Virus record (IMG/VR): IMGVR_UViG_3300022198_000015
DNA: 64,000 bases
Strand: one strand, 5' to 3'
From: an uncultured virus (IMG/VR IMGVR_UViG_3300022198_000015)
Lineage: Duplodnaviria > Heunggongvirae > Uroviricota > Caudoviricetes
Shown here in pieces: positions 740 through 53,397 of the stretch. The position numbers and the translations under genes are program-made. The notes under the pieces were generated by a model. That model did no database searches. It saw only the letters and a list, made by a program, of their open reading frames with translations, and had not been told where the DNA came from. Each line of letters starts with the position of its first letter. The stretch's first letter is position 1.

Positions 740-3586
740 TTATTGACGACGCATACGACGTTGACGTACCAGATTAACTAGTATGTCACTTGCAGCTTGC
801 GTGGGATTATCTGATTGAATAGTAACATTATTAATAATGTTATCCCCAACAGTCTTGCTACGTGAGTAGGTAGAACTAATGCTGCCCATAGAAACACCCG
901 CTTTAGGTGTCCTAATGGCATTTAAGTTAATACCTCCCTTAGGGATATCTAACTGGGCAGCTAAGTGGGCAGGAATAATGGTACCAGTAGCCGGGGCTTT
1001 CCATTGACCCCATGCAGGTGCATTAATCATGCTGAGACGACCAGAGGCACTAAGGAAAGCTTCTTGACCTAATTCATTAACAGTATAGGTAGTACCACCA
1101 GTAACAGGGCCACCAGCAAATTCATTTTTTCCTATATTAGGAATCTGAAGTTTATACGTACTAGCTTTACGTAAGGCACTTTCGATCCTTTCGGCAGCAT
1201 TCGCTACATTCCCTATCTTTGGTTGAGTGTCATCCAACGCTTTGTTTAAATCCCCAGTAGCTTTAGCTGATTGTTTTGCTGCTTCTAATCTACTCTGTTC
1301 TAATTTTAAGACAGCATCTGCTTTTTGAAATTGATTATCTTTTTGCTTTATTTGTTCATTTAAAGCTTTAATTTGCTCATCATAGTTTTTTTTGGTCTGA
1401 TCTAATTTTTTATTTAAATCCTCTATTGCAGCTTTATGACGATTCTCTTCTTCTGTTTTCTCTTTTTGTTTATCTGCAATTTTTTTCTCTAGTGCCTCTT
1501 CTTCTTGTTTTTGCTTCAATCGAATTTCTGCTATTTTTTCACTTCTAACTAATTGATCATAACTAGCTTGTGCCTCTAGACGTTCTTTTTCTGTAAGTTT
1601 TGCGTTATTAGCCTTAGCTAGTAACTCTTGTTTACGTAATTGTAGAAGACGTTCTTCAGCAGGCGTCTTAGCCTCTAACGCAGCAATCTCCGCAGCATAA
1701 CGATCTTTTATCTCGTCTTTCTGCTTTTTAAGTGCTTCTAATTGCTCATTTAATTGAGCCATCCGACCACTATGATATGTATCTTCGGCACTCTTAGCAT
1801 CCTCTAAACCTTGGATACGGACATCTTTTTCTCCTTTTAATTTTTCAATACGCTCTTCTAAATTAGCTTTTTCAATACCCCAAAGTATCTTTGCTTCGTT
1901 TAATTCTGCTTTACGTGCATCTAAAGCTCGTTGAGTAGCAGCAATTTGTTGATCTAAAGTTTGAACTACTTTTTTATTCTCATTATTGTATTCTTTTACG
2001 TACTGTTGTAAAGCAGGAAATTTACCAAAGTTATCAGCAAACCAATTTCTAGTAGCGTTAAATAAGTCATTGATAGTTGTTTTACCTTCAATAAAAGGTT
2101 TCACCCAAGGCGCCTGAGCAAATATTTCTCCTAATCCTATTATTTCACCAAATTTAGCAGCAAGAAACACAAGAATTCGGGCAGCTCCTTTTAAAAGAAA
2201 TACTATAATTTCTATAGTAGTAACAAAAATTTTTATAGCCTGAGCGATTATTAAAACAGCTCCATAGATAGCACCGCCTAAAAGGTTGCCGATTAGTGCT
2301 AAGGCTTCTTTAAAACCGTCACTTTTAATAAGTAGATCAGCAAAAAATTGCGAGATGTAAAGACCAATCGACTGGAATAATTGTCCAGTTTCACTAAAAG
2401 CTTCGTTAAGTTGATCAATACTGATTGTATTTATAGTACCTTTAATATTTTCAATTTGCGCTGGATTTAAATCATCAAGACGTGATTGTAAATCCCCAAT
2501 GCTACCCTCTAATTCTTTAATAGCCTCTTGCGATATAGCAATAAAAGCCTCTCGGAACAATTCAGCAGTAATCGCTCCAGAACTCATAGCACCTTCAAAA
2601 TCTGTAATGCCATATTTAGCGGCAGCATAATTAGCAATTTGTGCCCTTAAAGCACCATCAATTTCAGCAAATTGTTGATTTAATTCCTCACCTTGAAGTT
2701 TGCCTTTACCCATAACCTGAGCAAATGCTTCAATATATCGATTAGATTGATCTGTATTTAAACCAAGAGCCGTCATCCTTGCAGATAACGCTTGGATAGT
2801 ACCACTAACATCCGAAATAGTACCACCATTAGCAGTAATAGTAGGTGTTAGACGTTTATAGGCTTTTTCAACAGATTCTAGGGAAACACCAAAAGATAAC
2901 GAAATAGCCTTAGCATCATTTAATGCTTGAGCAGCATCATCTACACTAAGACCAAAAGTTTTAAAAGCTAGTTGAATTTGAGAAACTTGAGTAGCTCGTT
3001 GTACAAAAATCTGAATAGATTGATTAATTTGTCCTATAAGTTGTATAACAGTAGCTACAGCCGCTCCAATAGCATTAAATTTACCAATACCTTTAAGAAG
3101 ACCATCAAAACTTGGTAAAGTGACACCAGCAAAAGTAATGCGGCTAGCCTCACGTAATTTTCTTGAGGCCTCGTCTACCTTAGCGTTTGCTTCACTCCAT
3201 TTATTTGTTATAACACGTATAGAACGACCAGAAGCATCTACACCATCTTTATATTTAGCAATAGCATTTCTTGCCTGCACTAAATTAGATAAAGTTTGCT
3301 TAAGATTAGTTAAAGAGCCCTCTTCTGTCTTAAGAATTTGCTTCCTTTGTTTGTCAATTTTATCCCACTCACTTCGTAAAACTTTGGTAGTTTTTTCTAA
3401 CTCCCCAGTACGCGCATTAAGCTTAAGTTCAACAACAGTTTCTTTAGTACCACCCAATATTTTGTTAATCTGATCTTTAGCTTTTTCAGAACCATCTATA
3501 GCTTCCGTAAATAAAGTCTGAAAGTCTCTATTAGCCGTAGAAACATCAGCCTTAACCCTGACTAAAATATCTTCGGACTTAGCCAT
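740..3586 (-). CDS. Tail tape measure protein
   Basis: 948 aa, helical/coiled-coil; tape-measure motif AFAQVMGKGKLQGEELNQQ; C-terminal AGGPV...VNELGQEAF; follows major tail gene. Confidence 0.93.
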   Translation of the reverse strand: MAKSEDILVRVKADVSTANRDFQTLFTEAIDGSEKAKDQINKILGGTKETVVELKLNARTGELEKTTKVLRSEWDKIDKQRKQILKTEEGSLTNLKQTLSNLVQARNAIAKYKDGVDASGRSIRVITNKWSEANAKVDEASRKLREASRITFAGVTLPSFDGLLKGIGKFNAIGAAVATVIQLIGQINQSIQIFVQRATQVSQIQLAFKTFGLSVDDAAQALNDAKAISLSFGVSLESVEKAYKRLTPTITANGGTISDVSGTIQALSARMTALGLNTDQSNRYIEAFAQVMGKGKLQGEELNQQFAEIDGALRAQIANYAAAKYGITDFEGAMSSGAITAELFREAFIAISQEAIKELEGSIGDLQSRLDDLNPAQIENIKGTINTISIDQLNEAFSETGQLFQSIGLYISQFFADLLIKSDGFKEALALIGNLLGGAIYGAVLIIAQAIKIFVTTIEIIVFLLKGAARILVFLAAKFGEIIGLGEIFAQAPWVKPFIEGKTTINDLFNATRNWFADNFGKFPALQQYVKEYNNENKKVVQTLDQQIAATQRALDARKAELNEAKILWGIEKANLEERIEKLKGEKDVRIQGLEDAKSAEDTYHSGRMAQLNEQLEALKKQKDEIKDRYAAEIAALEAKTPAEERLLQLRKQELLAKANNAKLTEKERLEAQASYDQLVRSEKIAEIRLKQKQEEEALEKKIADKQKEKTEEENRHKAAIEDLNKKLDQTKKNYDEQIKALNEQIKQKDNQFQKADAVLKLEQSRLEAAKQSAKATGDLNKALDDTQPKIGNVANAAERIESALRKASTYKLQIPNIGKNEFAGGPVTGGTTYTVNELGQEAFLSASGRLSMINAPAWGQWKAPATGTIIPAHLAAQLDIPKGGINLNAIRTPKAGVSMGSISSTYSRSKTVGDNIINNVTIQSDNPTQAASDILVNLVRQRRMRRQ

Positions 3587-4960: not shown

Positions 4961-5380
4961 ATGAGTTCCTTCCTGAAGCCGATCCCTGAGACGGCTGATC
5001 AATTACTCTTTGATTTACAAGCCATGACTTCCTCAGAAGCTAAAAGGCAATGGCGAGCTGCCATAAAAGCTGCCTGGAAAAATTGTTGCGCTTACTGCGG
5101 TAAGCCACCAATTGATAATAAATCCTTAACAATTGATCACGTTAAACCTCGTATGCGTGGTGGAGAAGACCGCACCAGTAACTGCATCCCTGCTTGTCGA
5201 GATTGTAACCACCACAAAGGCTCCCACCACTGGTTAGCCTGGTACCGCATGCAACCTTTCTACTCCTTCTCCAAGGAGCTAAAAATTAAGCATTGGTTGC
5301 GTACAGGCGAAGTCCTGGAGGCTGAAACTTTAGACGATACCCTTTGGTTAGATTACATCTCTAACTATTTAACTAGCTGA
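4961..5380 (+). CDS. HNH endonuclease
   Basis: CAYC...TIDHVKP...GG...NCIPACRDCNHHKG; opposite strand within tail module. Confidence 0.92.
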   Translation: MSSFLKPIPETADQLLFDLQAMTSSEAKRQWRAAIKAAWKNCCAYCGKPPIDNKSLTIDHVKPRMRGGEDRTSNCIPACRDCNHHKGSHHWLAWYRMQPFYSFSKELKIKHWLRTGEVLEAETLDDTLWLDYISNYLTS

Positions 5381-9374: not shown

Positions 9375-9695
9375 TTAATCCCGTTGCCTCCAATCATCAG
9401 GCCGCTCCTGATGAAACCATTCAGCAATATCATCCACACTATTAAATCCACGTATACCTTTAGCATCATTCCCAATACCTCCAATATCAAGTTGGTTTAA
9501 AAAATCATCCATACTACCAGGCTCCATATCAGGATTCTCTGCCTTACGCCTGGCCTGCCTTAACATCGTAGCCGCATGCCTATTTACCTTAGCCAACTTC
9601 TCCGCCCATATCATATCACCTAATTGTACATCAGCCCCCACAATAATACACTTACATATATACTCTAGCTTTAATCGATAACTAGTGGATAACAT
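9375..9695 (-). CDS. Conserved cyanophage-type hypothetical protein
   Basis: MLSTSYRLKLEYICKCI...DWRQRD, 106 aa. Confidence 0.75.
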   Translation of the reverse strand: MLSTSYRLKLEYICKCIIVGADVQLGDMIWAEKLAKVNRHAATMLRQARRKAENPDMEPGSMDDFLNQLDIGGIGNDAKGIRGFNSVDDIAEWFHQERPDDWRQRD

Positions 9696-9731
9696 AGCAT
9701 CCTATACAACTCACCTATAATTCCAACACCC

Positions 9732-9878
9732 CTACGACTTACGCCCCTTAGATGCACTGGAACCCTTGGCCTTACCTTTCTTATACTTCTTTTTCTTCTC
9801 CTCCATAGCAAACTTACGAGCTACCTCAGGCTCCTGTGAATACAAATACCGACGTTGCTTACCAGATTTAAATGGCAT
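9732..9878 (-). CDS. Small basic protein (not in ORF track)
   Basis: MPFKSGKQRRYLYSQEPEVARKFAMEEKKKK..., 48 aa, abuts upstream gene. Confidence 0.7.
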   Translation of the reverse strand: MPFKSGKQRRYLYSQEPEVARKFAMEEKKKKYKKGKAKGSSASKGRKS

Positions 9879-9879
9879 C

Positions 9880-10275
9880 TTATGACCTAATTAACATAGT
9901 AGCACCCGTCTCACCTACCTTAGGCGTATACGGACAAAACTCAAAATACTTAATAACCTGTAGCCGTGCATCCATTATCTCATCATCAATACCACTGGAA
10001 CCCTTAGTAACCTCCCAACTTAATACATCCGCCTTAACTAACACCTTCCCATCAACATCAGCTAAATCACTAGTCGTCTTAGCCGCCTTACCAGCCTCAT
10101 ATCGATCAACCGCCTCCAATACCTTCAATACAGCCCCACTAGATATCCCCTCTAATTGATTCATACACGTCCGTAATCCATTTATACCATACTCACTAAA
10201 AGCCATCCCCATGGCTTCTAATACCCTGAGATCATCACCCGCTGACCAGTTCCCACTAGTGTCTAAAACAGCCAT
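9880..10275 (-). CDS. Putative head-tail connector protein
   Basis: 131 aa, late motif at 10303-10312, LVKADVLSW motif. Confidence 0.5.
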   Translation of the reverse strand: MAVLDTSGNWSAGDDLRVLEAMGMAFSEYGINGLRTCMNQLEGISSGAVLKVLEAVDRYEAGKAAKTTSDLADVDGKVLVKADVLSWEVTKGSSGIDDEIMDARLQVIKYFEFCPYTPKVGETGATMLIRS

Positions 10276-10317
10276 CAGGTATAATGTAATATAAACCTAA
10301 ATTAGTGTACCATAACC

Positions 10318-10524
10318 ATGTTATTTGACCCACAACAACAAACAACCCTCGCAATAGCCCTAATAATTGCCATTAATTGTCGCTCCCAATTAGGTACTCA
10401 CCAATTACTAAAACAAATCACAGCAATGGAGCCGAAAGTGGCGGCAAAATTTATTACTCGCATCTATGCACTATTGGGCAGTGACGCCAGAGGGTGGTTG
10501 GAGCAGGAATACCAGAAATTTTGA
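10318..10524 (+). CDS. Hypothetical protein
   Basis: 68 aa, TATAAT upstream at about 10280. Confidence 0.5.
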   Translation: MLFDPQQQTTLAIALIIAINCRSQLGTHQLLKQITAMEPKVAAKFITRIYALLGSDARGWLEQEYQKF

Positions 10525-10711
10525 CGCAAATTTAGAGGTTCCTGTCTGTGGCGCAGGCGCCCCCCACTTGACGGGTGGGGGTGCGTACCTTTTCGCAATT
10601 CAATAGGGGCTACCTTTCTATAGATGTACCAGCAAGGATCTACTGTTCGTATCATGATCGCGAACGGCCCGCTGGTCTTCACGAGCACGCTGCTCCTAGC
10701 ACCTGCATCAC

Positions 10712-10740
10712 TTGACATCCCCAGCTCTGTGCTGTAGACT
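10712..10740 (+). promoter_or_regulatory. Host sigma70-type promoter in cassette 1
   Basis: TTGACA-17 nt-TAGACT. Confidence 0.75.
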
Positions 10741-10774
10741 AAAGAAAATTACGGGGCCCACCCCACCACCTCTC

Positions 10775-10966
10775 ATGAACACCACCCTCCTCGGTATGCT
10801 GGCTCTGGCCACTACCCCTTTGCTAACCATAGCCCCTAGTGAGATGCAGACAGGAGCCTGTCTGCGTGGTGACAGACAGCAGTGCATCAGCTACCATCAA
10901 CACCGCTGTGATAAAGGTAACCTCTTTAGCTGCAACCGCCTGGCTTTAATAAAAGAAAATTACTGA
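10775..10966 (+). CDS. Cassette gene: small secreted/membrane Cys-containing protein
   Basis: MNTTLLGMLALATTPLL signal-like N-terminus, four Cys; between repeats 1 and 2. Confidence 0.6.
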   Translation: MNTTLLGMLALATTPLLTIAPSEMQTGACLRGDRQQCISYHQHRCDKGNLFSCNRLALIKENY

Positions 10967-11027
10967 GCAGCAGCGTGAGCGCGAACGGCCCGCGGGTCTT
11001 CACGCTCATCCCGTTAACCTCCACCGG

Positions 11028-11309
11028 ATGCTCCCCATGTCCCTCACCAAGAACTGGCTCCACGACTACAGCACTGCCCTGGATGATGCCTGGATGGCCC
11101 TTGAGGACGCCCTCGCTAAGGTCGAAGCCCTGGCGGATCTGGTCTGGATTGACGATGATACCATCCGCTATCCCGTCCCTGCTGCTGATGTCAATCTGTT
11201 ACAGCGGCGCGTTCGGGCATTGAAGGACAGTGTGGCTGTGGTAGCATCGGCTCAAGAGCCAAGCAGGCTCGCCCCAGAGCTGCCCAAGATCAGCCTGAAA
11301 AAATCGTGA
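11028..11309 (+). CDS. Cassette gene, hypothetical
   Basis: 93 aa; TGA stop is the first 3 nt of repeat 3. Confidence 0.75.
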   Translation: MLPMSLTKNWLHDYSTALDDAWMALEDALAKVEALADLVWIDDDTIRYPVPAADVNLLQRRVRALKDSVAVVASAQEPSRLAPELPKISLKKS

Positions 11310-11483
11310 GCGCGAACGGCCCGCTGGTCTTCACGCTCACCACTCATTAGTAATACTTATCGGTCCCGCCCCATTGATCAGCATTGCTAATGTTAAGTAG
11401 TGTTACAATCTCGTTGACGGGGTGGGCAGATGCCCTATAATAAAGGCACGAGGGGAAGAGAACCCCTCACCACGGAGAACACC

Positions 11484-11633
11484 ATGACCAACGCCATCTG
11501 GACCATCCTCACCGCCGACGTGCGGGACCTGCCCACCGCCTGGTACGGCGCCGGTTACCTGGTTGCCCAGGGCCGCCACGCCACTAACCGCCTGGACGGC
11601 ATGGCCCACCTGCTGCGCCGCTGGTACGCTTGA
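11484..11633 (+). CDS. Cassette gene, hypothetical
   Basis: GGAG RBS, TTGACG-16-TATAAT promoter (11414-11441), hairpin 11641-11662 downstream. Confidence 0.65.
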   Translation: MTNAIWTILTADVRDLPTAWYGAGYLVAQGRHATNRLDGMAHLLRRWYA

Positions 11634-11851
11634 ACCATCAGGGGTCCTGATATCAGGGCCCCTTATCTATTCTCTTATGGGCTTATGCGTCTAGGCGCAT
11701 AACCACTGTATGCTTCTACAATCATATGCGCATATGCGCATAACACTCTATCGTTATATCGGCAAACGTGACAGTGATAAGGGAACGCAGTCTATTTCTA
11801 AAGTGAGCGCGAACGGCCCGCTGGTCGATCACGCTCTCGCGGCGCTTCTAC

Positions 11852-12067
11852 CTAGTCTGTCCCTGAGTCTAGGGTTGCCGCCAGGCAGCGTTCTAGGTGC
11901 TCCTGTAGCCGCTGGGCACGCTTCAGACTATCCCTTCCCATTGCCACCATACTCTCGCCGGCAAGCCGTTCCAAGTGATCAGGGCTCTGCTGCATCAGCC
12001 GGCCACGCCTGATCAGCCAGGCTGCAAACCACACCCATGCCAAGCGCTCCTCAGTCTGCTGCTTCAT
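11852..12067 (-). CDS. Cassette gene, hypothetical
   Basis: 71 aa between repeats 4 and 5, GGAGG upstream on minus strand. Confidence 0.6.
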   Translation of the reverse strand: MKQQTEERLAWVWFAAWLIRRGRLMQQSPDHLERLAGESMVAMGRDSLKRAQRLQEHLERCLAATLDSGTD

Positions 12068-12175
12068 TGCTGGTTAGCATCCTCCAAAGGCTTCCAGATC
12101 CTAGCACAAAAAATCTGATCGCGAACGGCCCGCGGGTCTATCACGGTCACACCTACATTCTTCCCCTACTGAGCC

Positions 12176-12409
12176 ATGACCATCACCGCAAAGAGCACCA
12201 AGCCTGAGATCCTGGCAGCCTACCGCGAGCTGGTTGCCCGCCCTGTCACCACTGCCATGGTCGGCCAGTGGGCCGTCAGCACCGCCCAAACCGTAGTCGA
12301 GGAGTCGGTTCTGCTGGTTAAGGACTGTTACAACCTGGCCAAATGGGCCCGCCGGATGTATGATGGGGTTGTGGCGGAACTGAGCCGCCCGCTGCTAAAA
12401 AAAATCTGA
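12176..12409 (+). CDS. Cassette gene, paralog A
   Basis: 77 aa; paralog of 13145..13378; stop in repeat 6. Confidence 0.85.
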   Translation: MTITAKSTKPEILAAYRELVARPVTTAMVGQWAVSTAQTVVEESVLLVKDCYNLAKWARRMYDGVVAELSRPLLKKI

Positions 12410-12431
12410 TCGCGAACGGCCCGCTGGTCAA

Positions 12432-12671
12432 TCACGATCTAAATCGATCCACCGCAGTCTCCAGCTCGTCCAGGGCCGCCAGCAGCTCCTGGGCCTGATC
12501 CCGCATACCCTCTAGCCACCAGCGATCTGGGGCCCACATCGGCTCCCCAGGCCCGTTGGCCCAGGCCATATTGGCCAGGACCATCACCTCCAGGGCGGCA
12601 GCGTCAAGCTTCTCCTCAGCGGTGTCGCGTTGCTCCAGGTACTCCAGGAGCAGTTCCTTCATGGCAGACAT
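12432..12671 (-). CDS. Cassette gene, hypothetical acidic helical protein
   Basis: 79 aa; stop lies in the right arm of repeat 6. Confidence 0.7.
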   Translation of the reverse strand: MSAMKELLLEYLEQRDTAEEKLDAAALEVMVLANMAWANGPGEPMWAPDRWWLEGMRDQAQELLAALDELETAVDRFRS

Positions 12672-12819
12672 GGCTTGAAATCCCTTGGTACAACTACAGT
12701 TTGGAGCCTACAGGAAAAAAAGTCAAGGGCCTGTTACACAATGAAATGATCGCGAACGGCCCGCGGGTCAATCACGCTCATCCCTGTATACTGATCAAGT
12801 CCCCCATCGGAGTCCTCCC

Positions 12820-13074
12820 ATGACCCACGTCACCACCTACGCGGAGTTGCTGAATGCTCTGGCTGTCGTGCGCGATCGCGCCAATGCTGATGGTCTGCCT
12901 AGCCATATGCGGGCTGTTCGGATGTGGAGGGCCACGGACGCCCTCTGGAATGATGAGTACGCTACCTGGGAGGCCCTCACCAAACTAGGCCACCACAGGG
13001 CTGCTGACTGCGCATGGAAGCGCCGCACGGTCTACAGCGACCTGGCCATACTGCTCCTCAAAGGCGCAGTGTAA
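12820..13074 (+). CDS. Cassette gene, hypothetical
   Basis: 84 aa; GGAG RBS, TATACT at 12787-12792. Confidence 0.7.
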   Translation: MTHVTTYAELLNALAVVRDRANADGLPSHMRAVRMWRATDALWNDEYATWEALTKLGHHRAADCAWKRRTVYSDLAILLLKGAV

Positions 13075-13144
13075 AGAAAAATTTCGTGAGCGCGAACGGC
13101 CCGCTGGTCAATCACGCTCTCGCGTCCTTTACCCCACTCCATCG

Positions 13145-13378
13145 ATGTCCCTCACTGCACGCAGCACCAAAGCTGAAATCTGGCAAGCCTATCAGGGCCT
13201 GGTGGCCCGCCCGGTGACCGCAGCCATGGTTGGTCAATGGATCAGCCAAACCGCTCAGACCGTGGCCGCAGAGAGCGTCCTGCTTGTAAAGGATTGCTAC
13301 AAAGCCGGCCAGGTGGCCCGTAGCTGGTATGATTCGGTAGTGGCGGAACTGAGCCGCCCCATCCTGAGAAAATCCTGA
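13145..13378 (+). CDS. Cassette gene, paralog B
   Basis: 77 aa; paralog of 12176..12409; stop in repeat 9. Confidence 0.85.
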   Translation: MSLTARSTKAEIWQAYQGLVARPVTAAMVGQWISQTAQTVAAESVLLVKDCYKAGQVARSWYDSVVAELSRPILRKS

Positions 13379-13469
13379 GCGTGAACGGCCCGCTGGTCAA
13401 TCACGCTCTCGCGCTATACTGCAATCAGGAGGGGCAGCCCCTCCCACGGTCCTTCACCCCCTGAGACTC

Positions 13470-13682
13470 ATGTCCAGCACTCTCGTTATCGGCACCACCG
13501 CCCGCCCGCTGACTGACGCCTGGCGCCTTGATTGCATCGCCCACTGGGCCCAGTCCACCGAATTCTGGGCACGTTACCTTGACGACTGCACCATGGCCCG
13601 TAACGGCCTCAACCAGTCCTATGCTCGCCTGGGAGAGCACCTGCATTACCTGATGCGAGCTGACTCTCGCCCGGAATATTAA
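13470..13682 (+). CDS. Cassette gene, hypothetical
   Basis: 70 aa; TATACT at 13415-13420. Confidence 0.65.
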   Translation: MSSTLVIGTTARPLTDAWRLDCIAHWAQSTEFWARYLDDCTMARNGLNQSYARLGEHLHYLMRADSRPEY

Positions 13683-13724
13683 AAAATATTTCCTGAGCGT
13701 GAACGGCCCGCTGGTCAATCACGC

Positions 13725-13913
13725 TCATGATTCGTTACATTGCAGCCAGGCATCCTCCACATCCAAGGCGTGGGCTAGGATCTCACCGATGGGCCCGTCC
13801 ATGTGGGCCTCAAACTCTTCGTCGCTCAGCTCTTTGCGGGCCACCTCCAGCTCGTTGTGGAGGTACTCGCACCACTCCAGCAGATTCTGGAGCTTGTCAA
13901 TCGCAGTGGCCAT
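13725..13913 (-). CDS. Cassette gene, acidic hypothetical
   Basis: 62 aa; GGAG RBS; stop is the last 3 nt of repeat 10; TATACT on minus at 13937-13942. Confidence 0.75.
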   Translation of the reverse strand: MATAIDKLQNLLEWCEYLHNELEVARKELSDEEFEAHMDGPIGEILAHALDVEDAWLQCNES

Positions 13914-13982
13914 GAGGGTTCTCCCTGTTTGATTTCAGTATACTCGGAATTTGAGCGTGAACGGCCCGCTGGTCGATCACGG

Positions 13983-14450
13983 TCACGCCGTATATGGGTC
14001 AGCAGGCCAGGCTAGGACTAGTTTCTGGCGTGGGAACTGGCCCGTGGTGACCGTCACAGCAGCCTGCAGCACAATCTCAGACCATAGGATCCATCGGATC
14101 TGGAAGGGCGCCGTGGAAGCTGCCGACCGATAGGCTCCCAGCTCGCCTTCAAAGTCGTAAGCGTGGCCGTAGGTCAGATGATCCCAGTCATGCACAGCCC
14201 GGAACATAGCATTCTCCACCGGCAGCCAGAACGGGTGACGGTTGTGCGCTGTGCTAATCAGCAGCTTGCCGGTGCGCTCCCAGTAACGCTGCAGTCGCTC
14301 AGGCTTGACAGGGTTGGGCGTATACTGTACCAACGGCCGGATCCGTTCATAGCGCAGATACAGCCACTGCCGAAAGGTGTACAGCTGCTCTGGTGATGGC
14401 CGGCAGCCCTTTGAGGCTAGGTACAGTTTGGCGAGTCGTGAGGCTTGCAT
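13983..14450 (-). CDS. Cassette gene with FRAVHD..H motif (possible metal-binding/hydrolase domain)
   Basis: 155 aa from ATG 14450 (MQASRL...); ENAMFRAVHDWDH...FEGE; stop is the last 3 nt of repeat 11. Confidence 0.75.
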   Translation of the reverse strand: MQASRLAKLYLASKGCRPSPEQLYTFRQWLYLRYERIRPLVQYTPNPVKPERLQRYWERTGKLLISTAHNRHPFWLPVENAMFRAVHDWDHLTYGHAYDFEGELGAYRSAASTAPFQIRWILWSEIVLQAAVTVTTGQFPRQKLVLAWPADPYTA

Positions 14451-14606
14451 GGTTCCCCCGTTGCATCTGGTGTCAGTGTAGCACGTTTGAGCGTGAACGG
14501 CCGCTGGCCGCTCACGGTCACGCGCTCTCGGTCGCCCTATCTCTCTATCGTTGTTGCACGCCAGAAAAAAAGTTCCTATACTGCAGGGGTACACGGGAGT
14601 CACCCC

Positions 14607-14756
14607 ATGCGCCACACCCGCCCGCTCACCAGCAAGCAACTGCAGGCTTTCTATAAAGCCCTGCTTGACGCCGATCGCACGGCGGCCTATACTGATGCCC
14701 ATCTGGCGTTCCTTGAGATGCGCCGTGATGCTTTCCTCGCTTCCCTCAAAAAGTGA
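14607..14756 (+). CDS. Cassette gene, hypothetical
   Basis: GGGAG RBS; TTGCAC-17-TATACT promoter 14554-14582. Confidence 0.65.
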   Translation: MRHTRPLTSKQLQAFYKALLDADRTAAYTDAHLAFLEMRRDAFLASLKK

Positions 14757-15088
14757 TGACCCTCGCTATTGCCCCCAACGCCTATGTCATCCGCATCTAT
14801 TGCGGTATGTCAGTTCAAGGCGAATCTAGTGCCAGCATCTATAACAACAGCTACGACATTATCATGGAGCTGGCGGATTACTGGTTTGGCCAGGGTTGCA
14901 CCGTTTACAATGCTACTGGCATTTGGATGAACGGCGAGGAAGAGATGATGATCATTGAATATGTAGCCGACAAGGAGGTAGAAGCTGCTTGCGAGGCTGC
15001 TAACCAGTTAGCCATTGAATATAAGAACCTGAATATGCAGGATGCTGTTCTGGTTACTGTAGATCAAACTTACAAAAAAATTCTTTAA
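14753..15088 (+). CDS. Hypothetical protein (DUF3574-like pattern)
   Basis: GCTVYNATGIW...EE...YK...QDAVLV; overlaps upstream stop. Confidence 0.65.
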   Translation: MMTLAIAPNAYVIRIYCGMSVQGESSASIYNNSYDIIMELADYWFGQGCTVYNATGIWMNGEEEMMIIEYVADKEVEAACEAANQLAIEYKNLNMQDAVLVTVDQTYKKIL

Positions 15089-15286
15089 AAATTTTTTAAA
15101 GAAAAAATAAACCGCTGGGGAGAAAAAAATCTCCCCTTTTTTTTGAGCGTGAACGTCGCAAGCGTCGTTCACGATCGATCCCGCTGTCAAGCCCGCCCCT
15201 CTTTGTCATATTTCGTAATATTAAGCTGGCCCTGGCGCCGGGGCCGGCCAGGCTGTATACTTTAGGGGTCCCTCAAGGGTTAACCC

Positions 15287-15883
15287 ATGAGCAAGTTTAC
15301 AATCCTCGGAGTGCTGAATTTAGCAACCCAGGCTGACAGAATCGAGGGCCTTGATTGGTATGACCGCGCTAAGCGTGTCGCCGAATCTATTGCTAATCGG
15401 GTGGGCTTGCCCGGTGAGCTTCCCGCTATCGGGTGGCAGACAATCGCCGGGGTGCTCGCTGCCCTTAGCCCTAACAATCGGTGGGAGCGCAATTGTGCCG
15501 ATGCTGAGCTAGTTGTTAAGCTGTTTAAAGCTGGCGGTGCTGATGCTGCCCTAGGTGCAAAGGTGTGTACCTATAAATCAAACCTGCGTAAAGCGGTTGC
15601 GATTCTAGAGGGTGCGCCCATTGTAGCTACCCTTAACGGGCCAAAGGTTATAGAGTTCTACAATTGCATCACCGGCAGCGTTGCTGATGTATGCATAGAT
15701 GGGCATGCCTATGCCATATGGTGCGGCCAGCGACTCACAATAAAAGAAATTCCTCCCATTGGAAAGAAGTTGCGGGCACAAATTAAAGCGGACTATATTG
15801 CAGCCGCTAGGTGTGTTGATCTTCGGCCCTGTGAGGTGCAGGCTATTACCTGGGTTACATGGCGCCGTTTGCATAACGTCTAA
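15287..15883 (+). CDS. Phage protein with HhH-glycosylase-like motifs (DUF7178-like)
   Basis: WYD...LAALSPNNRWERN...GPKVIEFY...VCIDGHA...VQAITW. Confidence 0.7.
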   Translation: MSKFTILGVLNLATQADRIEGLDWYDRAKRVAESIANRVGLPGELPAIGWQTIAGVLAALSPNNRWERNCADAELVVKLFKAGGADAALGAKVCTYKSNLRKAVAILEGAPIVATLNGPKVIEFYNCITGSVADVCIDGHAYAIWCGQRLTIKEIPPIGKKLRAQIKADYIAAARCVDLRPCEVQAITWVTWRRLHNV

Positions 15884-15914
15884 AAATTAATTTTCACCCC
15901 ATCCCATCGCTTTT

Positions 15915-16130
15915 TTGATCATGCTTGCTACTGTCCGTTTCTATCTTGACGCTGAGGTTGATGCTGAGCTGCTTGACGAGCTTGACCTTGAATATAATTA
16001 TGAAGAGGACTATTGCGTTCTGACCTTAGAGGTTGACGAGACCCTGTTAGAGTCACTCAATGGTGAGGAACTGGTAGAGTTTATCGGTATCGACGGCGAG
16101 AATCTGGTTTATATCGAGGTGGTGGAATGA
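15915..16130 (+). CDS. Highly acidic small protein
   Basis: About one third D/E residues. Confidence 0.7.
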   Translation: MIMLATVRFYLDAEVDAELLDELDLEYNYEEDYCVLTLEVDETLLESLNGEELVEFIGIDGENLVYIEVVE

Positions 16131-16318
16131 GTAAAGAGGTCATTCGCCCTATCTATAATGTACTGTTACCACCTGCAGGTGTACCCTCACCAGTTTTTTA
16201 CTTTATATTGTTAGGTATTTTCCCCTTTTTATGGTTACTGAAAGCCACAAATGTTCTAGAGCCTGCCTACTACGAACACCCTGACGGCTCCATTAAAAAA
16301 TATCCCCCGAAATATTAA
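16127..16318 (+). CDS. Small membrane protein
   Basis: One hydrophobic segment, ATGA overlap with upstream gene. Confidence 0.55.
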   Translation: MSKEVIRPIYNVLLPPAGVPSPVFYFILLGIFPFLWLLKATNVLEPAYYEHPDGSIKKYPPKY

Positions 16319-16324
16319 TTTACA

Positions 16325-16349
16325 GGGCCCAATTCGGGCCTTTTTTTTT
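16325..16349 (+). terminator. Intrinsic terminator
   Basis: GGCCC-AATTC-GGGCC followed by T9. Confidence 0.8.
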
Positions 16350-17288
16350 AGTTAAAACAGCGAATCGATCGTGAACGGTGCGCAGCACCATTCACGGTCA
16401 CGCGAGGGGCGCGACCGGGGAGTTGCAATTATTCACATGGGCGCGAAGCGCCGCCGGCAAGGCAGCATAAACCAAAAACTATTGGTATACTATTATATAC
16501 AGACAGCGGCCACTTCGGCTACTGGCACCTTGACAACAGAATAAGGCTATGGTATAGGGAGGGGCCCGGTTTCCAGCATTAGTATTTTCCCCAAGGTTTT
16601 CACCTCTCTCTCCTCATTCTACCAACACGACACCAGTGTATTGGTCTTTAGAATTCGTAAAAACGCTGTGAGGCACTAGGTTTCTAGTAGCCGTGGTCAA
16701 ATAATATCTGTGGGATTATAATCGCCACCTAAGGGAAACCCATGCACACCAACCTATGCAATGCCTTAAAATACCAATTGCGAAACAACTCGTATATATG
16801 TAGCCGACGAAACAATACTAGCAAGCAGGCGGCAACCCATTGCATAATCCCCCGCCAGACAACACCCCTCTACAAGCCTCTAGAACAGGCCTAAAGGGCA
16901 CCACCTATAGGGAGACACCACAGACGATGTTAAAGGTCCTTCTAGAGCCTTCCAGGGGCCTCTAAATAAATAAAAAAATATCCCCCGGTGCCGGTTGGCC
17001 ACCAAGAAAAAAAATTACCCCGGATGGCGTATCTGGTGGGCCTCAAAGCATAGCTCAGTACATTCTTGTTTTAACCTAGTTATATATTCTGGATCATTAC
17101 ACTCGGTAGTTGCCTTAGTTATCTGTTGCTCTAGATTAAATAACTTTTCTAAGATTAAGACTAATTTGGGATTGTTCATTGTACCCTGTAACTAAGTAAA
17201 AAAAAATTCTTACCTAGTAAGTGGACCCTCTAGGCTGCCCATACAAGGGCTAAACTGTCACACACTATTGATTTTGTATCAGATGATA

Positions 17289-17700
17289 CAAGGTCCAAGT
17301 TTTATGGGTCAATGTCCCAACTCGGTCTGCGAAATGTCCACACCAAAACCCTTGCAAATACTACATGGTCCGCAAGGTCCAAGTTTTGAATTTACATGAG
17401 CTGTCGAAAAGTGCCGCCTAGTCATTTTTGTATCCGCATGAACCTTTTGATTTGTTGCCGTGATGCATCTGTAAAATCTGAGAGGGGGGTACCTCAAAAC
17501 TTGGACATCGCGGACCATCCAGTCATACCAAGGGGTTTGGCGCGGACCTTCGGCAGACATTTGGGGGACATTGACCTAAAAATGCGGACCGGGCCTTGTG
17601 CCAGTTGTTTTTGCTATTTCCAGTCTCAGATGGACCACCACCACGTTCGCGGACCTTCGCGGACCATCCAGTCATACCAAGGAGTCTCATGTTGAGACTC
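17289..17700. repeat. About 100 bp imperfect inverted repeat plus 26 bp direct repeat; candidate replication origin
   Basis: Arms 17289-17389 and 17494-17598; TCGCGGACCATCCAGTCATACCAAGG at 17508 and 17657; hairpin GAGTCTCA/TGAGACTC 17682-17700. Confidence 0.8.
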
Positions 17701-17752
17701 AAATGAGACATGGACCTTCTGGTATACTGAAGATGCCCCACGACATGACCCC

Positions 17753-17989
17753 ATGCAAATCGACACTGAAAGCGTGCTCAAAGCTGCCGACAAACTTATT
17801 GCCGAGCACCCACGAGAGAAGGAGATTCTTAAAAACAACATTTTTGCTGTTCGTAGTCTCCGAGATAAAGGGTTAACTTATGGCGAAATCCGAGAGCTGA
17901 CTAATTTGTCATTGACCACCATTAAGCGTTATCTGGGTAAAGCAGAAAAAAATCTGGTTGCTCATTACCAGAAAATCCTGGAGGACTGA
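17753..17989 (+). CDS. Helix-turn-helix DNA-binding protein
   Basis: LRDKGLTYGEIRELTNLSLTTIKRYL; TGGTATACT extended -10 upstream. Confidence 0.8.
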   Translation: MQIDTESVLKAADKLIAEHPREKEILKNNIFAVRSLRDKGLTYGEIRELTNLSLTTIKRYLGKAEKNLVAHYQKILED

Positions 17990-18051
17990 CACCCAAGGGG
18001 CCACCTCGGCCCCCTCCTTTGGTATACTGAGAATGCCCTATCCACGAATCT

Positions 18052-23161: not shown

Positions 23162-23243
23162 GCCATCGTGGTGGAACGGTCTACACATCGCGCTTAAAAC
23201 GCGACGGGCACAGCCCTTGCAGGTTCGAATCCTGTCGGTGGCA
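23162..23243 (+). tRNA. tRNA-Leu(UAA)
   Basis: GCCATCG/CGGTGGC acceptor, TCGCG-CTTAAAA-CGCGA anticodon arm, long variable arm, GGTTCGAATCC. Confidence 0.93.
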
Positions 23244-23285
23244 TCAATAGGTAAACTAAAACACAAAAACACACAGCCTCTACCT

Positions 23286-23726
23286 ATGTCTCCAAAATAC
23301 AAAAACTATACTGATCTAGATATACAACAAGCCGTTGAATCTAGCACAAGTATTGCTCAAGTCCTGAAAAAACTTGATCTAGTAGTAGCAGGAGGGAATT
23401 ACAATAATATAAAAAAACACATAGCAAGATTAGGTTTAAATACAGAACATTTTAAAGGAAAAGCATGGACTCCTATTGGGTATGAGTTTAAACCTTTTGA
23501 AGGGCTACGAGGCAAAGAAGCTATTAAAAAACGCATAGCAAAAGAGCGTGGATGGAACTGCGAAAAGTGTTTATTAACCACATGGTTAGACCAGCCTATC
23601 AGCCTTGAATTAGAACACATTAATGGTAATTCTAATGACAATTCTAAAGAAAATCTATTGCTACTTTGCCCTAACTGCCATGCTCAAACCAACACATGGC
23701 GTCGCCGCAAGACCTCCTTGATGTGA
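23286..23726 (+). CDS. HNH homing endonuclease
   Basis: CEKC...LELEHING...N...NLLLLCPNCH; AT-rich gene between two tRNAs. Confidence 0.9.
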   Translation: MSPKYKNYTDLDIQQAVESSTSIAQVLKKLDLVVAGGNYNNIKKHIARLGLNTEHFKGKAWTPIGYEFKPFEGLRGKEAIKKRIAKERGWNCEKCLLTTWLDQPISLELEHINGNSNDNSKENLLLLCPNCHAQTNTWRRRKTSLM

Positions 23727-27262: not shown

Positions 27263-27808
27263 ATGAGCCGCGATGTAGTCAAAGAATGGTTGAACGTCAC
27301 TGGTCAACATTCTGTACTAGATCCTGAAGAAGTAATTAAACTCACTAGCATTATTCAAAATAATGCAATGGAGTCCAAGGCTAAGAAAAAAGCCCTGGAG
27401 AAGATGGTTAAGTGCAACACTAAAATGGTGGTCCATCTGACTTTGGGATTCTTTCGTAGACGCCAAGGCCTGAGGCTCAATGATGATCGTTTAAACGATT
27501 ACCTACAACAAGGGATGCTAGGTTTGATCCGAGCCATAGAAAAATTTGATCCTGATAAAGGGTACAAATTCTCTACCTATGCGTACCGATGGATTAACAG
27601 CTATTTGGGTCGTTATCATTACGACAACCAAACCCTGGTGCATATCCCTGAACCCATAATGTGTTCCCTGTTCAGTGGTAATAATGTCAAAAAACAAAAA
27701 GACCGCATTGAAGATGCTGTGCGTTTTCTGAACATGGATAGTCTTGATCGCATTGTTACTGGCCCAACAGGCGATCGTATCCGACTTGGGGATGCCCTAG
27801 CACTCTAG
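27263..27808 (+). CDS. Sigma70-family factor (regions 1.2-2.4, no region 4)
   Basis: DYLQQGMLGLIRAIEKFDPDKGYKFSTYAYRWI. Confidence 0.9.
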   Translation: MSRDVVKEWLNVTGQHSVLDPEEVIKLTSIIQNNAMESKAKKKALEKMVKCNTKMVVHLTLGFFRRRQGLRLNDDRLNDYLQQGMLGLIRAIEKFDPDKGYKFSTYAYRWINSYLGRYHYDNQTLVHIPEPIMCSLFSGNNVKKQKDRIEDAVRFLNMDSLDRIVTGPTGDRIRLGDALAL

Positions 27809-34298: not shown

Positions 34299-34982
34299 AT
34301 GGCAAGATCAGCAGCCAAATTTAAACTTAATGCTGAGCAACAACAACTCGTAGTTGATAATTTAAACCTAGCACGGCGGGAAGCTTGGCGTTACCAGCGA
34401 CGTACAGAAATAGATTACAGAACCCTAGAGTCTGTGGCCTTTGAAGGCTTGTGTCAAGCAGCGTACAAATACGATCCAGAGCTAATTAATGAACATACGG
34501 GACAATCTATGAAATTCAGCTCTATTGCAGTACCTTACACCAGAGGTGCTATATTACATTACATCAGAGATAGGACATATCTATTGCGCCTTAGCCATAA
34601 AATGCGCGAGAATTGGTTAAAAGGTCGCAAGTTAATTTACAAAGGACATTCTGACTATGCTATTGCAGAAGCTTTAGGTATAGACCTTAGTGAATGGTTA
34701 GAAACTAGAGTAACTTGCAGCGGTCCCCCTTTAGAGCTAAAAGAGCAAGGGGCTCCAACTATTGATATTGAAATTCCAGACATCGATATGACGCAGCAAT
34801 ATATCAAACAAGCGGAAGGTGTTTTAAAAGAATTAACAGAAACACAGCAAGAAAAACTGCAAGGCTTCTTACTATCTGAGACTAATAAATACCCAGTAGA
34901 TGCCGTAAAAACTTTGGATAGAATATTAAAAATTACCGACTGTCCTGAGCCAGACTTTAGCACATGGGAACTAGAGGATTGA
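34299..34982 (+). CDS. Sigma70-family factor (SigF/FliA-like)
   Basis: VVDNLNLA...AFEGLCQAAYKYDP...KFSSIAVPYTRGAILHYIRD; HTH IAEALGI. Confidence 0.85.
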   Translation: MARSAAKFKLNAEQQQLVVDNLNLARREAWRYQRRTEIDYRTLESVAFEGLCQAAYKYDPELINEHTGQSMKFSSIAVPYTRGAILHYIRDRTYLLRLSHKMRENWLKGRKLIYKGHSDYAIAEALGIDLSEWLETRVTCSGPPLELKEQGAPTIDIEIPDIDMTQQYIKQAEGVLKELTETQQEKLQGFLLSETNKYPVDAVKTLDRILKITDCPEPDFSTWELED

Positions 34983-50898: not shown

Positions 50899-51255
50899 TC
50901 ATTGGAACACATCCTGAGTACCATTTTCAATGTGCTTACACATTGCTAAGATCTCAGCTTTCGGCAAAGAATTTTTAAGATCGTAACCCTGATCTTCAGC
51001 CCACTCCAAAAGCTCTGCTTTAGTCATAGAATCAAGCTCAGTCTTAATCTCAGCATCCATTAAATCTTCAAAAGCGTCACCACCGGCAACAACAGGCTGT
51101 TCGGGAACCTTAGGAGCCGGAGGAGCGGCAACGGCCTTAGGACCTTCTTCCACGTACCCCGCATCCAAAAGCTCGCGGGCAGTTACAGTATAATAAGCAG
51201 CACGGCGATCATCGCCTTTTACAAAATAAGTAGGAAGCTTGCTAAGATGAGCCAT
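50899..51255 (-). CDS. Protein with C-terminal HeH/Rho-N-like domain
   Basis: LDSMTKAELLEWAEDQG.....KAEIL. Confidence 0.65.
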   Translation of the reverse strand: MAHLSKLPTYFVKGDDRRAAYYTVTARELLDAGYVEEGPKAVAAPPAPKVPEQPVVAGGDAFEDLMDAEIKTELDSMTKAELLEWAEDQGYDLKNSLPKAEILAMCKHIENGTQDVFQ

Positions 51256-52317: not shown

Positions 52318-53397
52318 TCAACCAATAACCGGAGCTTTTAAAGCCACGGGAGTAAATTCCGTAGCTGCAAGGTCCAGAGGGAAATTATGAGCATTGCGCT
52401 CGTGCATCACCTCAAAACCTAAATTAGCCCGATTCAGCACATCTGCCCAGGTATTAATTACATTATTTTGAGTATCCAGCAGAGACTGATTAAAATTAAA
52501 TCCATTTAAATTAAACGCCATAGTAGATACGCCAAGAGCAGCGAACCAAATACCCACAACAGGCCATGCTGCAAGGAAAAAGTGGAGACTACGAGAATTG
52601 TTAAAGCTAGCGTATTGAAAAATAAGACGACCAAAGTAACCATGAGCAGCTACAATATTATAGGTTTCCTCTTCTTGGCCGAATTTATATCCATAATTTT
52701 GGCTAATAATTTCAGTAGTTTCACGCACCAGGCTGGAGGTCACCAGCGAACCGTGCATGGCGGAGAACAGGCTGCCGCCGAACACACCGGCCACACCCAG
52801 CATGTGGAAGGGGTGCATCAGAATGTTGTGCTCAGCCTGGAACACCAGCATGTAGTTGAAGGTGCCGCTGATACCCAGAGGCATACCATCAGAAAAAGAA
52901 CCTTGACCAAAAGGATAAACAAGGAATACTGCAGTTGCCGCAGCCACAGGAGCCGAATACGCGACGCAGATCCAAGGCCGCATCCCTAATCGATAGCTAA
53001 GTTCCCATTCGCGTCCCATGTAAGAGAAGACGCCAATAAGGAAGTGGAAGACGACCAATTGGTACGGGCCCCCGTTATAGAGCCATTCGTCAAGGCTATT
53101 AGCTTCCCAAATTGGATAGAAATGTAGTCCGATTGCGTTACTGGAGGGGACAACTGCTCCAGAGATGAGATTGTTTCCATAAAGCAATGCACCGGCAACA
53201 GGTTCACGGATACCGTCAATATCGACGGGAGGAGCAGCCACAAAGGCGACAATGAAGCAAATGGTGGCAGCCAGCAGGGTGGGGATCATCAGCACACCGA
53301 ACCATCCCACATACAGGCGGTTGTTGGTGGAAGTCACCCATTGACAAAACTGTTCCCAAATAGAAAAACTAGGACGTGTTGCAATAGTAGCAGTCAT
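52318..53397 (-). CDS. psbA: Photosystem II D1 protein
   Basis: 359 aa, [14 protein letters not shown]...[13 protein letters not shown]; uninterrupted; terminator 52268-52295. Confidence 0.99.

Follow-up and report, generated by a model that had tools for sequence, protein, structure and literature searches.

In phages of the T4 type, ORFans in hyperplastic genome regions are flanked by stem-loops combined with early promoter motifs (promoter-early stem-loops, PeSLs), and recombination at this motif generates insertions, deletions, and mini-circles, with crossovers located sometimes in the loop; no dedicated recombinase is known (PMC2839356, PMC4122927). The acquisition and reshuffling of small accessory genes by phages is well documented only for these PeSL cassettes. 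Here, we analyze a 64,000-nucleotide stretch of DNA from an uncultured virus of the Caudoviricetes (IMG/VR record IMGVR_UViG_3300022198_000015; hereafter the window), in which small genes are separated by co-oriented copies of a conserved hairpin repeat. A first-pass annotation of the window had proposed that this locus is an integron-like gene-cassette array and had also pointed to the promoter–stem-loop repeats of T4-type phages, a comparison that turns out to be much the better fit. With moderate confidence, we interpret the array as a hyperplastic accessory region of a lytic-type siphovirus, built from hairpin-linked cassettes, in which the linker would serve both as an intercistronic element and as portable homology for exchange.

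Results

A Co-oriented Array of Two-Tier Hairpins

A covariance model trained on 53 repeat copies was used to scan the window and recovered 14 hairpin repeats, all on the + strand and together spanning positions 10653–16406 (R1, 10653–10693; R2, 10974–11014; R3, 11305–11345; R4, 11802–11843; R5, 12114–12155; R6, 12405–12446; R7, 12745–12786; R8, 13085–13126; R9, 13374–13415; R10, 13692–13733; R11, 13950–13991; R12, 14486–14526; R13, 15142–15183; R14, 16364–16406). Start-to-start spacings are 321, 331, 497, 312, 291, 340, 340, 289, 318, 258, 536, 656, and 1222 nucleotides (nt). All 14 strong matches fall within this span, with no further + strand copy in the other 58 kb, and matches on the − strand are low-scoring mirrors at the same 14 places, as a palindrome predicts. 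A degenerate pattern of the repeat yielded 15 matches versus 0.10 expected from shuffled sequences, nine of them + strand copies and six weaker mirrors of the same palindromes. The number, common orientation, and spacings of the repeats given by the first-pass annotation were reproduced exactly by repeat finding and by the covariance model.

Folding assigned a common two-tier hairpin to all 14 copies; the repeat measures 33–45 nt. An outer stem of 9–11 pairs leads through a small asymmetric internal loop to an inner stem of 4–5 bp (GGCC/GGTC, including a G·T wobble) that is closed by a loop of 4–6 nt. Model scores reach 47.7 bits for R1, which has the arms plus the core GAACGGCCCGCTGGTC, 47.3 bits for R2, 54.7 bits for R4, and 55.3 bits for R8. 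The last three copies are variants that retain the arms GAGCGTGAAC...TCACGRTC around inner hairpins that are unrelated but compensated; R12 scores 38.8 bits and carries the inner stem CGGCC/GGCCG, and R13 and R14 carry other inner hairpins. An Rfam search of positions 9500–18000 returned only two chance-level matches (E = 0.46 and 3.1), neither on any repeat.

Each of the intervals 1–11 holds one plausible small open reading frame (ORF), here numbered c1–c11 by interval. Seven of these lie on the + strand and four on the − strand (c4, 11852–12067; c6, 12432–12671; c10, 13725–13913; c11, 13983–14450); interval 12 holds two ORFs and interval 13 three. This map agrees with the layout described earlier on both strands, and together with the folding it bears out the view of the repeats as structured hairpins that bracket single small ORFan genes.

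Arrays in Related Phages

Motif scans and searches with F1, the protein family of c5 and c8, identified at least seven further arrays in metagenomic contigs. L147, a 6.1-kb metagenome contig, contains 15 copies; G002 contains two copies plus one cut by the contig end; G003, four; G004, a 93-kb record rated complete, 12 plus one truncated and two degenerate copies; G005, seven; L459, eight copies with a different core; and L460, nine copies plus variants, internal to a contig of 85.8 kb. Six of these seven arrays (G002, G003, G004, G005, L459, and L460) adjoin homologues of the window's structural genes, and L147 is a fragment without backbone genes. The backbones of these phages are 66–77% identical, and in every array examined the repeats are co-oriented.

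A minimal version occurs in a cultured phage, S-CRES1, where two hairpins of the arm type stand on either side of gp61 and gp62, the latter gene ending at the opening TGA of the second copy. Just upstream of these hairpins, at 1972–2165 and 2630–2680 of S-CRES1, lie five tandem 21-nt iterons and an AT-only stretch, which look like a replication origin. The core motif was not found in S-CBS2 (whole genome), S-CRES1, or S-CRES3, and the covariance model detected no copy in positions 1–50000 of S-CBS2, in S-CRES3, or in P-SS2. Nothing was obtained from a nucleotide search of the array against cultured phages, from a primase-based search for loci, or at the far end of G004. A scan of 185,579 prokaryote genomes gave, among the matches listed, only single hits, all in GC-rich non-cyanobacteria, and hosts may still carry the hairpin. 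Within the phages examined, the hairpin is confined to a single syntenic array in one clade.

Structure Is Conserved More Widely Than Arms or Core

The repeat consists of an invariant core, GAACGGCCC-N3-6-GGTC, embedded in a covarying outer stem. Across 53 copies from six arrays, the columns GAAC...C at the start of the core and TC.C in the right arm are invariant, and eight of the 11 outer-stem pairs have changed on both sides. Outer-stem positions pair in 81.7% of 847 cells, compared with 24.5–35.8% when the partner is slid. The G·T wobble is retained in 50 of the 53 copies, and the core contains an unpaired spacer on one side only. The distance from left arm to right arm ranges from 13 to 22 nt, and every copy shares an identical core of 16–20 nt.

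Three arm types were distinguished: type A (TGAKCGYGA...TCACGMTCA), type B (GGAACYTGCGA...TCGCAGGTGCC), and type C (GGCACCTGAGA...TCGCAGGTACC), all of which are present within the G004 array. Distal copies in the window, L147, L459, and L460 combine type-A arms with unrelated inner hairpins, and type-B and type-C copies keep the core with the arms replaced. The structure is conserved everywhere; the arms and the core are each conserved only in subsets.

Several specific functions were considered for the repeat and set aside. A promoter for an extracytoplasmic function sigma factor, made up of the GAAC box and a right-arm box, is ruled out by the variable arm-to-arm distance. A one-way leftward terminator was suggested by an A-run before several window copies, equivalent on the − strand to a hairpin with a T-run behind it, but this run is absent in the copies of arrays L147, L205, and L251 and therefore is not a property of the family. 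Selenocysteine-type recoding through TGA and the hairpin was judged by eye; read-through of c2 or c5 meets a stop within about 11–30 codons, and no domain is gained.

Cassettes Are Shuffled, Duplicated, and Inverted between Arrays

The arrays differ in how the same gene families are placed. F1 members occur twice each in the window, L147, L205, and L251 and also in L459 and L460, at differing ranks. The family of c2 is present in L205, L147, and L460; F1 directly precedes it in L147 and L205 and directly follows it in L460, and in the window c2 lies three cassettes ahead of the first F1 member. The family of c7 recurs in L459. Orientation also varies: one F1 member of G004, and c10 of the window compared with its L147 homologue, lie on the strand opposite to that of their relatives. 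Around these inverted cassettes the cores are unflipped, and the stop codons fall in the mirrored arm.

The repeats themselves carry marks of exchange. Three L147 copies are chimeric, with the left arm of type B and the right arm of type A. In a set of 44 type-A copies, left- and right-arm variants are unassociated (Fisher p = 0.27), and 20 of the 53 copies are mismatched at that stem position. A breakpoint is visible between G003 and G004, which are similar over one repeat and its 40-nt leader (79%), lack similarity over the next 470–510 nt, where their cassettes are unrelated, and regain similarity (71% over 315 nt) exactly where the next repeat begins. The cassette of G003 that is not shared with G004 has its homologue in G005 instead.

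Identical gene order and content among relatives had been named as the outcome that would speak against a cassette system. The relatives instead hold cassette families in other orders, copy numbers, and orientations, and they have chimeric repeat arms. The proposal of a modular, recombination-driven gene library therefore stands as far as modularity and exchange are concerned, on the strength of the shuffled families, the chimeras, and the G003/G004 breakpoint; in the strict integron sense it does not.

No Known Recombinase Accompanies the Array

A Pfam scan of the 114 window ORFs detected no tyrosine recombinase, serine recombinase, or Y1 transposase, no tyrosine recombinase appeared among the PHROG names, and no integrase was identified in the window phage. 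In the five related records G001–G005, one of them rated 100% complete, tyrosine recombinases (PF00589) were found in none, with a positive control detected in 14 of 14 cases; serine recombinases were likewise absent; and the Y1 transposase of the type associated with repetitive extragenic palindromes (RAYT; PF01797) was found in none of the five. The earlier remark that no tyrosine or serine recombinase is visible in the window holds and extends to these relatives.

Contig Ends and Population Data at the Repeats

Five of ten array-bearing contigs or records end within about 60 nt of a repeat copy (G001, UViG_3300022200_007299, G002, G004, and L147), and three of the ten span their array (the window's own contig, L459, and L460). 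An IMG/VR contig of 99.85% identity stops at 12148, at the end of R5, and most F1 homologues reside on contigs of 1–2 kb. Among contigs from public sequencing runs, seven of 11 listed loose ends lie inside repeats and continue into unlike sequence; all that follows from this is that, in those samples, the same repeat also borders on other sequences. The hairpin array accounts for the breaks in metagenomic assemblies of these phages at this spot.

Some apparent joints were not used. In run X2, joints 10678>11803 and 13398>13952 are anchored on one side by only 24 letters and are most simply explained by other cassettes with the same repeat; in run X8, a back-joint, 13932>12747, is based on matches of 22 and 24 letters within the shared leader and repeat. 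Bins that no contig covers, for instance the backbone flanks in run X11, were likewise given no weight.

Record G001 ends exactly at 10658, 4 nt into R1, and two contigs of the marine run X11 stop at the same position, where the letters that follow are the start of what we take to be a standard Illumina adapter. The DNA may physically end here or be cut at the first hairpin's base, or the agreement may be a coincidence. In the same run, 498 contigs map to 10553–14066 at 90–99% likeness, with summed word depths of 10^3–10^4, far above those in the other three runs; this excess may reflect an abundant and diverse population of relatives that share cassettes, or a special library.

Cassette Genes and Expression Signals

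The products of the cassette genes are small and mostly without a known family. On the + strand, c1 (10775–10966) encodes a cysteine-rich protein of 63 amino acids (aa) with a hydrophobic N-terminus and without family, behind a promoter-like site at 10712–10740. The c2 product (11028–11309) has 93 aa and family members at other positions in arrays L205, L147, and L460, as described above. The gene c3 (11484–11633; 49 aa) lies between a near-consensus promoter (11414–11441) and a terminator (11640–11663). F1 members c5 (12176–12409) and c8 (13145–13378) each encode 77 aa and are paralogues (68% aa and 72% nt identity). The remaining + strand cassettes are c7 (12820–13074; 84 aa), which has the L459 homologue, and c9 (13470–13682; 70 aa, without family). 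On the − strand, c4 (71 aa) and c6 (79 aa) are without family, c10 encodes 62 aa, and c11, read from an ATG at 14450, encodes 155 aa with weak PHROG matches of unknown function. Interval 12 contains two overlapping + strand ORFs (14607–14756 and 14753–15088), and interval 13 contains three, also on the + strand: 15287–15883, which matches DUF7178 and phrog_3842 in Pfam and PHROG, followed by 15921–16130 and 16127–16318. Apart from the DUF7178 gene, no array ORF has a significant Pfam or named PHROG family.

The F1 family comprises 86 database clusters, none with an informative name. Its structural model (predicted local distance difference test score, pLDDT, of 90) consists of a short helix followed by a 44-residue helix. 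Fold searches produced no convincing structural match, the best being an unnamed 80-aa viral protein (E = 0.009), and a tblastn search of F1 against cultured phages gave nothing. The product of 14753–15088 (111 aa) resembles S-CRES1 gp62 (28% identity over 92 aa; pairwise E = 8e-8), which its depositors labelled an S-adenosyl-L-methionine (SAM) hydrolase, a label that neither Pfam nor the PDB confirms; Pfam and PDB sequence searches with 14753–15088 itself gave no match. This gp62-like gene is the sole hint of host-takeover, anti-restriction, or anti-defence cargo, and this distant similarity is best treated as a lead.

Many of the stretches between genes follow one order: a stop codon, often the TGA of the arm; the hairpin; a shared leader with a ribosome-binding motif, such as AAACCAC..CAGGGAAC; and an ATG. 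Other intervals carry an extra −10-type box (TATACT or TACACT) about 6–70 nt from the hairpin, for example TATACT at 12787, immediately after R7. At least eight of 16 gene starts have their own −10-like box. Consensus-like promoters occur only after R1 and R3, and −10-only boxes follow several other repeats. The genes c2, c5, and c8 start 20–35 nt past a hairpin without a promoter box; the space left does not admit a promoter, and transcription must cross the hairpin to reach them.

Stop codons are built into the arms. On the + strand, c2, c5, and c8 terminate at the opening TGA of R3, R6, and R9, respectively; on the − strand, c10 and c11 terminate at the mirrored closing TCA of R10 and R11, and c6 terminates at the TCA within the right arm of R6. 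A consensus scan placed canonical intrinsic terminators at 11640–11663, 15117–15136, and 16324–16342, the last two immediately before R13 and R14, and scored none of the 14 repeats as an intrinsic terminator. The hairpin is not simply a terminator.

The non-coding stretch 11660–11760, which follows the c3 terminator, contains repeated GCGCATATGCGC-type palindromes, and contigs of run X11 carry two small deletions in this area (11694>11736 and 11742>11800).

Genome Context

The window represents nearly all of a Synechococcus-type siphovirus genome of about 66.5 kb; the longest record that contains the window's F1 protein has 66,521 nt. Record G001 matches the window with 100% identity and bridges its end to its start over 1,958 nt, which indicates that the genome is circular or circularly permuted. 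The large terminase shares 65% identity with the corresponding proteins of Synechococcus phages S-CBS2 and S-CRES1-3. The phage origin proposed at the outset is confirmed by a virion and lysis gene set of tape measure, tail tube, portal, major capsid, terminase, and endolysin genes. Genes for replication and nucleotide metabolism encode a family A DNA polymerase, a primase, a ribonucleotide reductase, and ThyX, and genes linked to recombination encode a RecE-like PD-(D/E)XK exonuclease, SSB, and RusA. There are three tRNA genes.

The array separates leftward structural genes from rightward early and replication genes, with a small helix-turn-helix (HTH) gene nearby at 17753–17989. It forms an island with a GC content of 0.53–0.59, against 0.35–0.49 in most other 2-kb bins and 0.545 in one other bin. 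Over the arrays of the window (10001–16000), L459 (6000–9000), and L460 (6000–9000), GC content is 0.53–0.64, compared with about 0.38–0.50 in the backbones; this excess may point to an origin in foreign DNA or to GC-biased repair at a hot spot of recombination.

Elsewhere in the window, AT-rich direct repeats resembling ATAAAAAAATATCCCC follow the array at 16292, 16970, and 17005. Two sigma-factor-like genes (27263–27808 and 34299–34982) and a full-length psbA gene encoding D1 (52318–53397) are present. Two free-standing HNH endonuclease genes and an endonuclease VII-like gene lie at 4961–5380, 23217–23726, and 50899–51255, one of the HNH genes between tRNA genes.

Discussion

A Model for Hairpin-Linked Cassettes

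The reading that we prefer, an accessory region of hairpin-linked cassettes, can be put as a simple model. Each module would be a single small ORFan gene, in many cases accompanied by a promoter-like box of the −10 type and by the shared ribosome-binding leader, and the conserved hairpin of 33–45 nt would be the linker that joins one module to the next. Within transcripts, the linker would act as a structured intercistronic element, such as an insulator, attenuator, or 3′-end stabilizer, rather than as a strong terminator. At the DNA level, its 16–20 nt core and palindromic arms would provide portable homology through which the recombination machinery of the phage or the host could exchange, duplicate, delete, or replace cassettes. 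Neighboring copies face each other with arms that are inverted repeats (right arm of the first, left arm of the second); recombination between these arms would flip the enclosed cassette and leave the asymmetric core in place. Genes would consequently appear on both strands while the repeat never turns, and the constant polarity of the core would need no selection. Because the arms open with TGA and close with TCA, they would provide an incoming gene with a stop codon whichever side it enters from.

Several observations weigh against this model. A recombination event was not seen directly, and in three other records that are at least 99% identical to it the cassette order is unchanged as far as they cover the array. 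Homologous cassettes in different arrays share 30–58% protein identity, with one pair at 83%, and at such low identity the shuffling may be ancient and slow. The shared core of 16–20 nt is short for ordinary homologous recombination, and its conservation beyond the needs of a spacer or homology patch hints at a specific binding partner. The arms appear to be array-specific rather than to travel with cassette families, a pattern that concerted evolution fits equally. Pairing is equally good on both strands (81.7% versus 81.6%), a tie in which wobble pairs favor neither strand of action and which gives no pointer to an RNA-level role. In addition, the public-run contigs were built from 31-letter words, and their breaks at shared repeats are partly technical.

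Conservation of the core between backbones that are only 66–77% identical, together with the link of the hairpin to the shared ribosome-binding leader and to stop codons, would also be expected of a purely regulatory repeat. The element would then be a site or RNA signal through which a phage regulator (for example, either of the sigma factors, the HTH protein at 17753–17989, or an RNA-binding protein) coordinates early genes, and gene order would change by illegitimate recombination with the repeats as bystanders. The array opens the rightward early region and adjoins the HTH gene, and promoter-bearing intergenic repeats of halovirus HF2 offer a precedent (PMC8707807). We nevertheless consider a purely regulatory role unlikely: chimeric repeats and a homology breakpoint exactly at a repeat are unexpected for bystanders, the mirrored stops of inverted cassettes point to exchange through the arms, an arm-to-arm distance of 13–22 nt rules out a two-box promoter, and the −10 box lies anywhere between about 6 and 70 nt away. 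A selfish palindrome resembling repetitive extragenic palindromic (REP) sequences or miniature inverted-repeat transposable elements (MITEs), inserted between pre-existing genes of the region, would match the size of 33–45 nt, the imperfect palindrome, the extragenic location near stop codons, and the strict polarity, all familiar traits of REP sequences and of bacterial interspersed mosaic elements (BIMEs). Yet the copies are not dispersed and occupy one array at one syntenic site in each phage examined, no RAYT/Y1 transposase occurs among the window ORFs or in G001–G005, and no multi-copy case appears among the bacterial matches listed, all of them the single hits noted above. Moreover, the repeating unit includes the leader and the ribosome-binding site, and the GC-rich cassettes are unlike the backbone, so that gene and repeat seem to arrive together; an inserted selfish palindrome is accordingly the least probable of the explanations discussed, and we think it highly improbable.

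Dedicated site-specific exchange would take the features of the core most literally. An unrecognized phage or host enzyme would cut the folded hairpin, as single-stranded DNA or a cruciform, at a fixed point in the core, and cassettes would move as circles. The invariant asymmetric core with its G·T wobble and one-sided spacer recalls the recognition of folded attC sites, the chimeras switch arm types exactly across the core, co-orientation is strict in all arrays, the core is short for homologous exchange, and most of the phage's proteins are without known function. On the other hand, the 114 window ORFs and G001–G005 yielded neither a tyrosine or serine recombinase nor a Y1 transposase, and no feature of the repeat is universal enough to be recognized, given that distal copies keep the arms with the core replaced, type-B and type-C copies keep the core with the arms replaced, and L459 has a different core. 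Inverted cassettes are also hard to obtain from a directional reaction. Neither circles nor junction reads appeared, in assembled contigs that could not have revealed them. On balance, such an enzyme seems quite unlikely. The bolder form of this idea, that the hairpin is the site of a new cyanophage gene-capture system, independent of recombinase families, whose structure-specific phage or host enzyme acts on the folded core to excise, insert, and, by way of the mirrored arms, invert single-gene cassettes, is in our judgment similarly doubtful. If it were true, early or counter-defence genes would be kept in a library that resembles an integron and is reshuffled rapidly, and the array's high GC content would be the footprint of very frequent recombination.

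Comparison with Known Systems

Integron cassettes are mostly promoterless, share one orientation, and are expressed from a common promoter; arrays without an integrase are known as clusters of attC sites lacking integrases (CALINs). Their attC sites are long imperfect inverted repeats that measure about 57–141 nt and contain paired core sites and extrahelical bases, and cassettes are excised as circles. The present array resembles them in the shared orientation of its structured repeats, in having a single small unrelated gene ahead of each repeat, in ORFs that terminate at the repeat or within it, and in content that varies between relatives. It differs in its 33–45 nt repeats, in lacking the attC core-site layout (as judged from the outer stem of 9–11 bp and the inner stem of 4–5 bp) and an IntI, in having four of the first 11 cassettes on the − strand and a −10-like box at half or more of the gene starts counted above, and in belonging to a lytic-type phage. 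With short repeats, −10 boxes in many cassettes, genes on both strands, and no recombinase in the window or the five related records, the array is not integron-like in the strict sense.

Other repeat systems are more distant. REP sequences and BIMEs, which may protect mRNA 3′ ends, are imperfect palindromes of similar size that are likewise extragenic and near stop codons; here, 14 of 14 copies lie in one 5.8-kb array, as they do in G002–G005, there is no RAYT, and the repeat is tied to a leader and to cassette borders. In phage T7, hairpins between early genes are processed by RNase III, and both systems place hairpins with internal loops between the cistrons of an early region, but the stems of the present repeat total about 14–16 bp and its cassettes lie on both strands. 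The repeats of CRISPR arrays enclose short non-coding spacers of about 30–40 nt, unlike the spacings of 258–1222 nt found here, which are filled by ORFs.

The genome of P-SS2 provides an independent example of a terminator/promoter cassette layout around the F1 family. Its gp052 (3018–3260) is an F1 member (profile E = 2e-13) and is flanked by repeated motifs, a GC-stem/T-run terminator and a TTGACA...TAGAAT promoter. As in the window, the gene sits among small genes split by repeated motifs; in P-SS2, however, these are canonical terminator and promoter motifs, with no conserved hairpin according to the covariance model. No description of the hairpin array was found in the full-text literature searched, and subscription-only papers, including the original S-CBS2 genome paper, lie outside that search.

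The closest known system is that of the PeSL cassettes, and the resemblance is best regarded as an analogy rather than membership. In both systems, a stem-loop motif separates the small ORFans of a hyperplastic region, a promoter or promoter-like box often belongs to the cassette itself, whole cassettes distinguish relatives, exchange falls within the motif, sometimes in the loop, and no dedicated recombinase is known. The differences are equally clear. The array belongs to a cyanobacterial siphovirus rather than a T4-type myovirus and is without sequence similarity to PeSLs; it is one dense array, compared with the many scattered PeSL sites. Its hairpin combines an invariant asymmetric core with the lack of a U-tract and receives no terminator score; a promoter may be present or absent and its distance varies, both arms contain stops so that either direction is served, cassettes are found inverted without inversion of the core, and the whole forms a GC-rich island. 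Mini-circles and terminator activity have been shown for PeSLs, whereas this array is known from sequence alone. The two-copy version in the cultured phage S-CRES1 makes circles, crossovers, and transcript effects accessible to bench tests, and the strong conservation of the core, seen for instance in its wobble pair, leaves room for a possible dedicated partner. The hairpin also marks where new early-gene functions of cyanophages, possibly in counter-defence, may be sought. The modular logic of the PeSL cassettes is now found in an unrelated group, the siphoviruses of freshwater and estuarine Synechococcus, where what is new is a single well-defined linker, with an invariant core, covarying stems, and two-way stop codons, combined with a simple geometry for cassette inversion.

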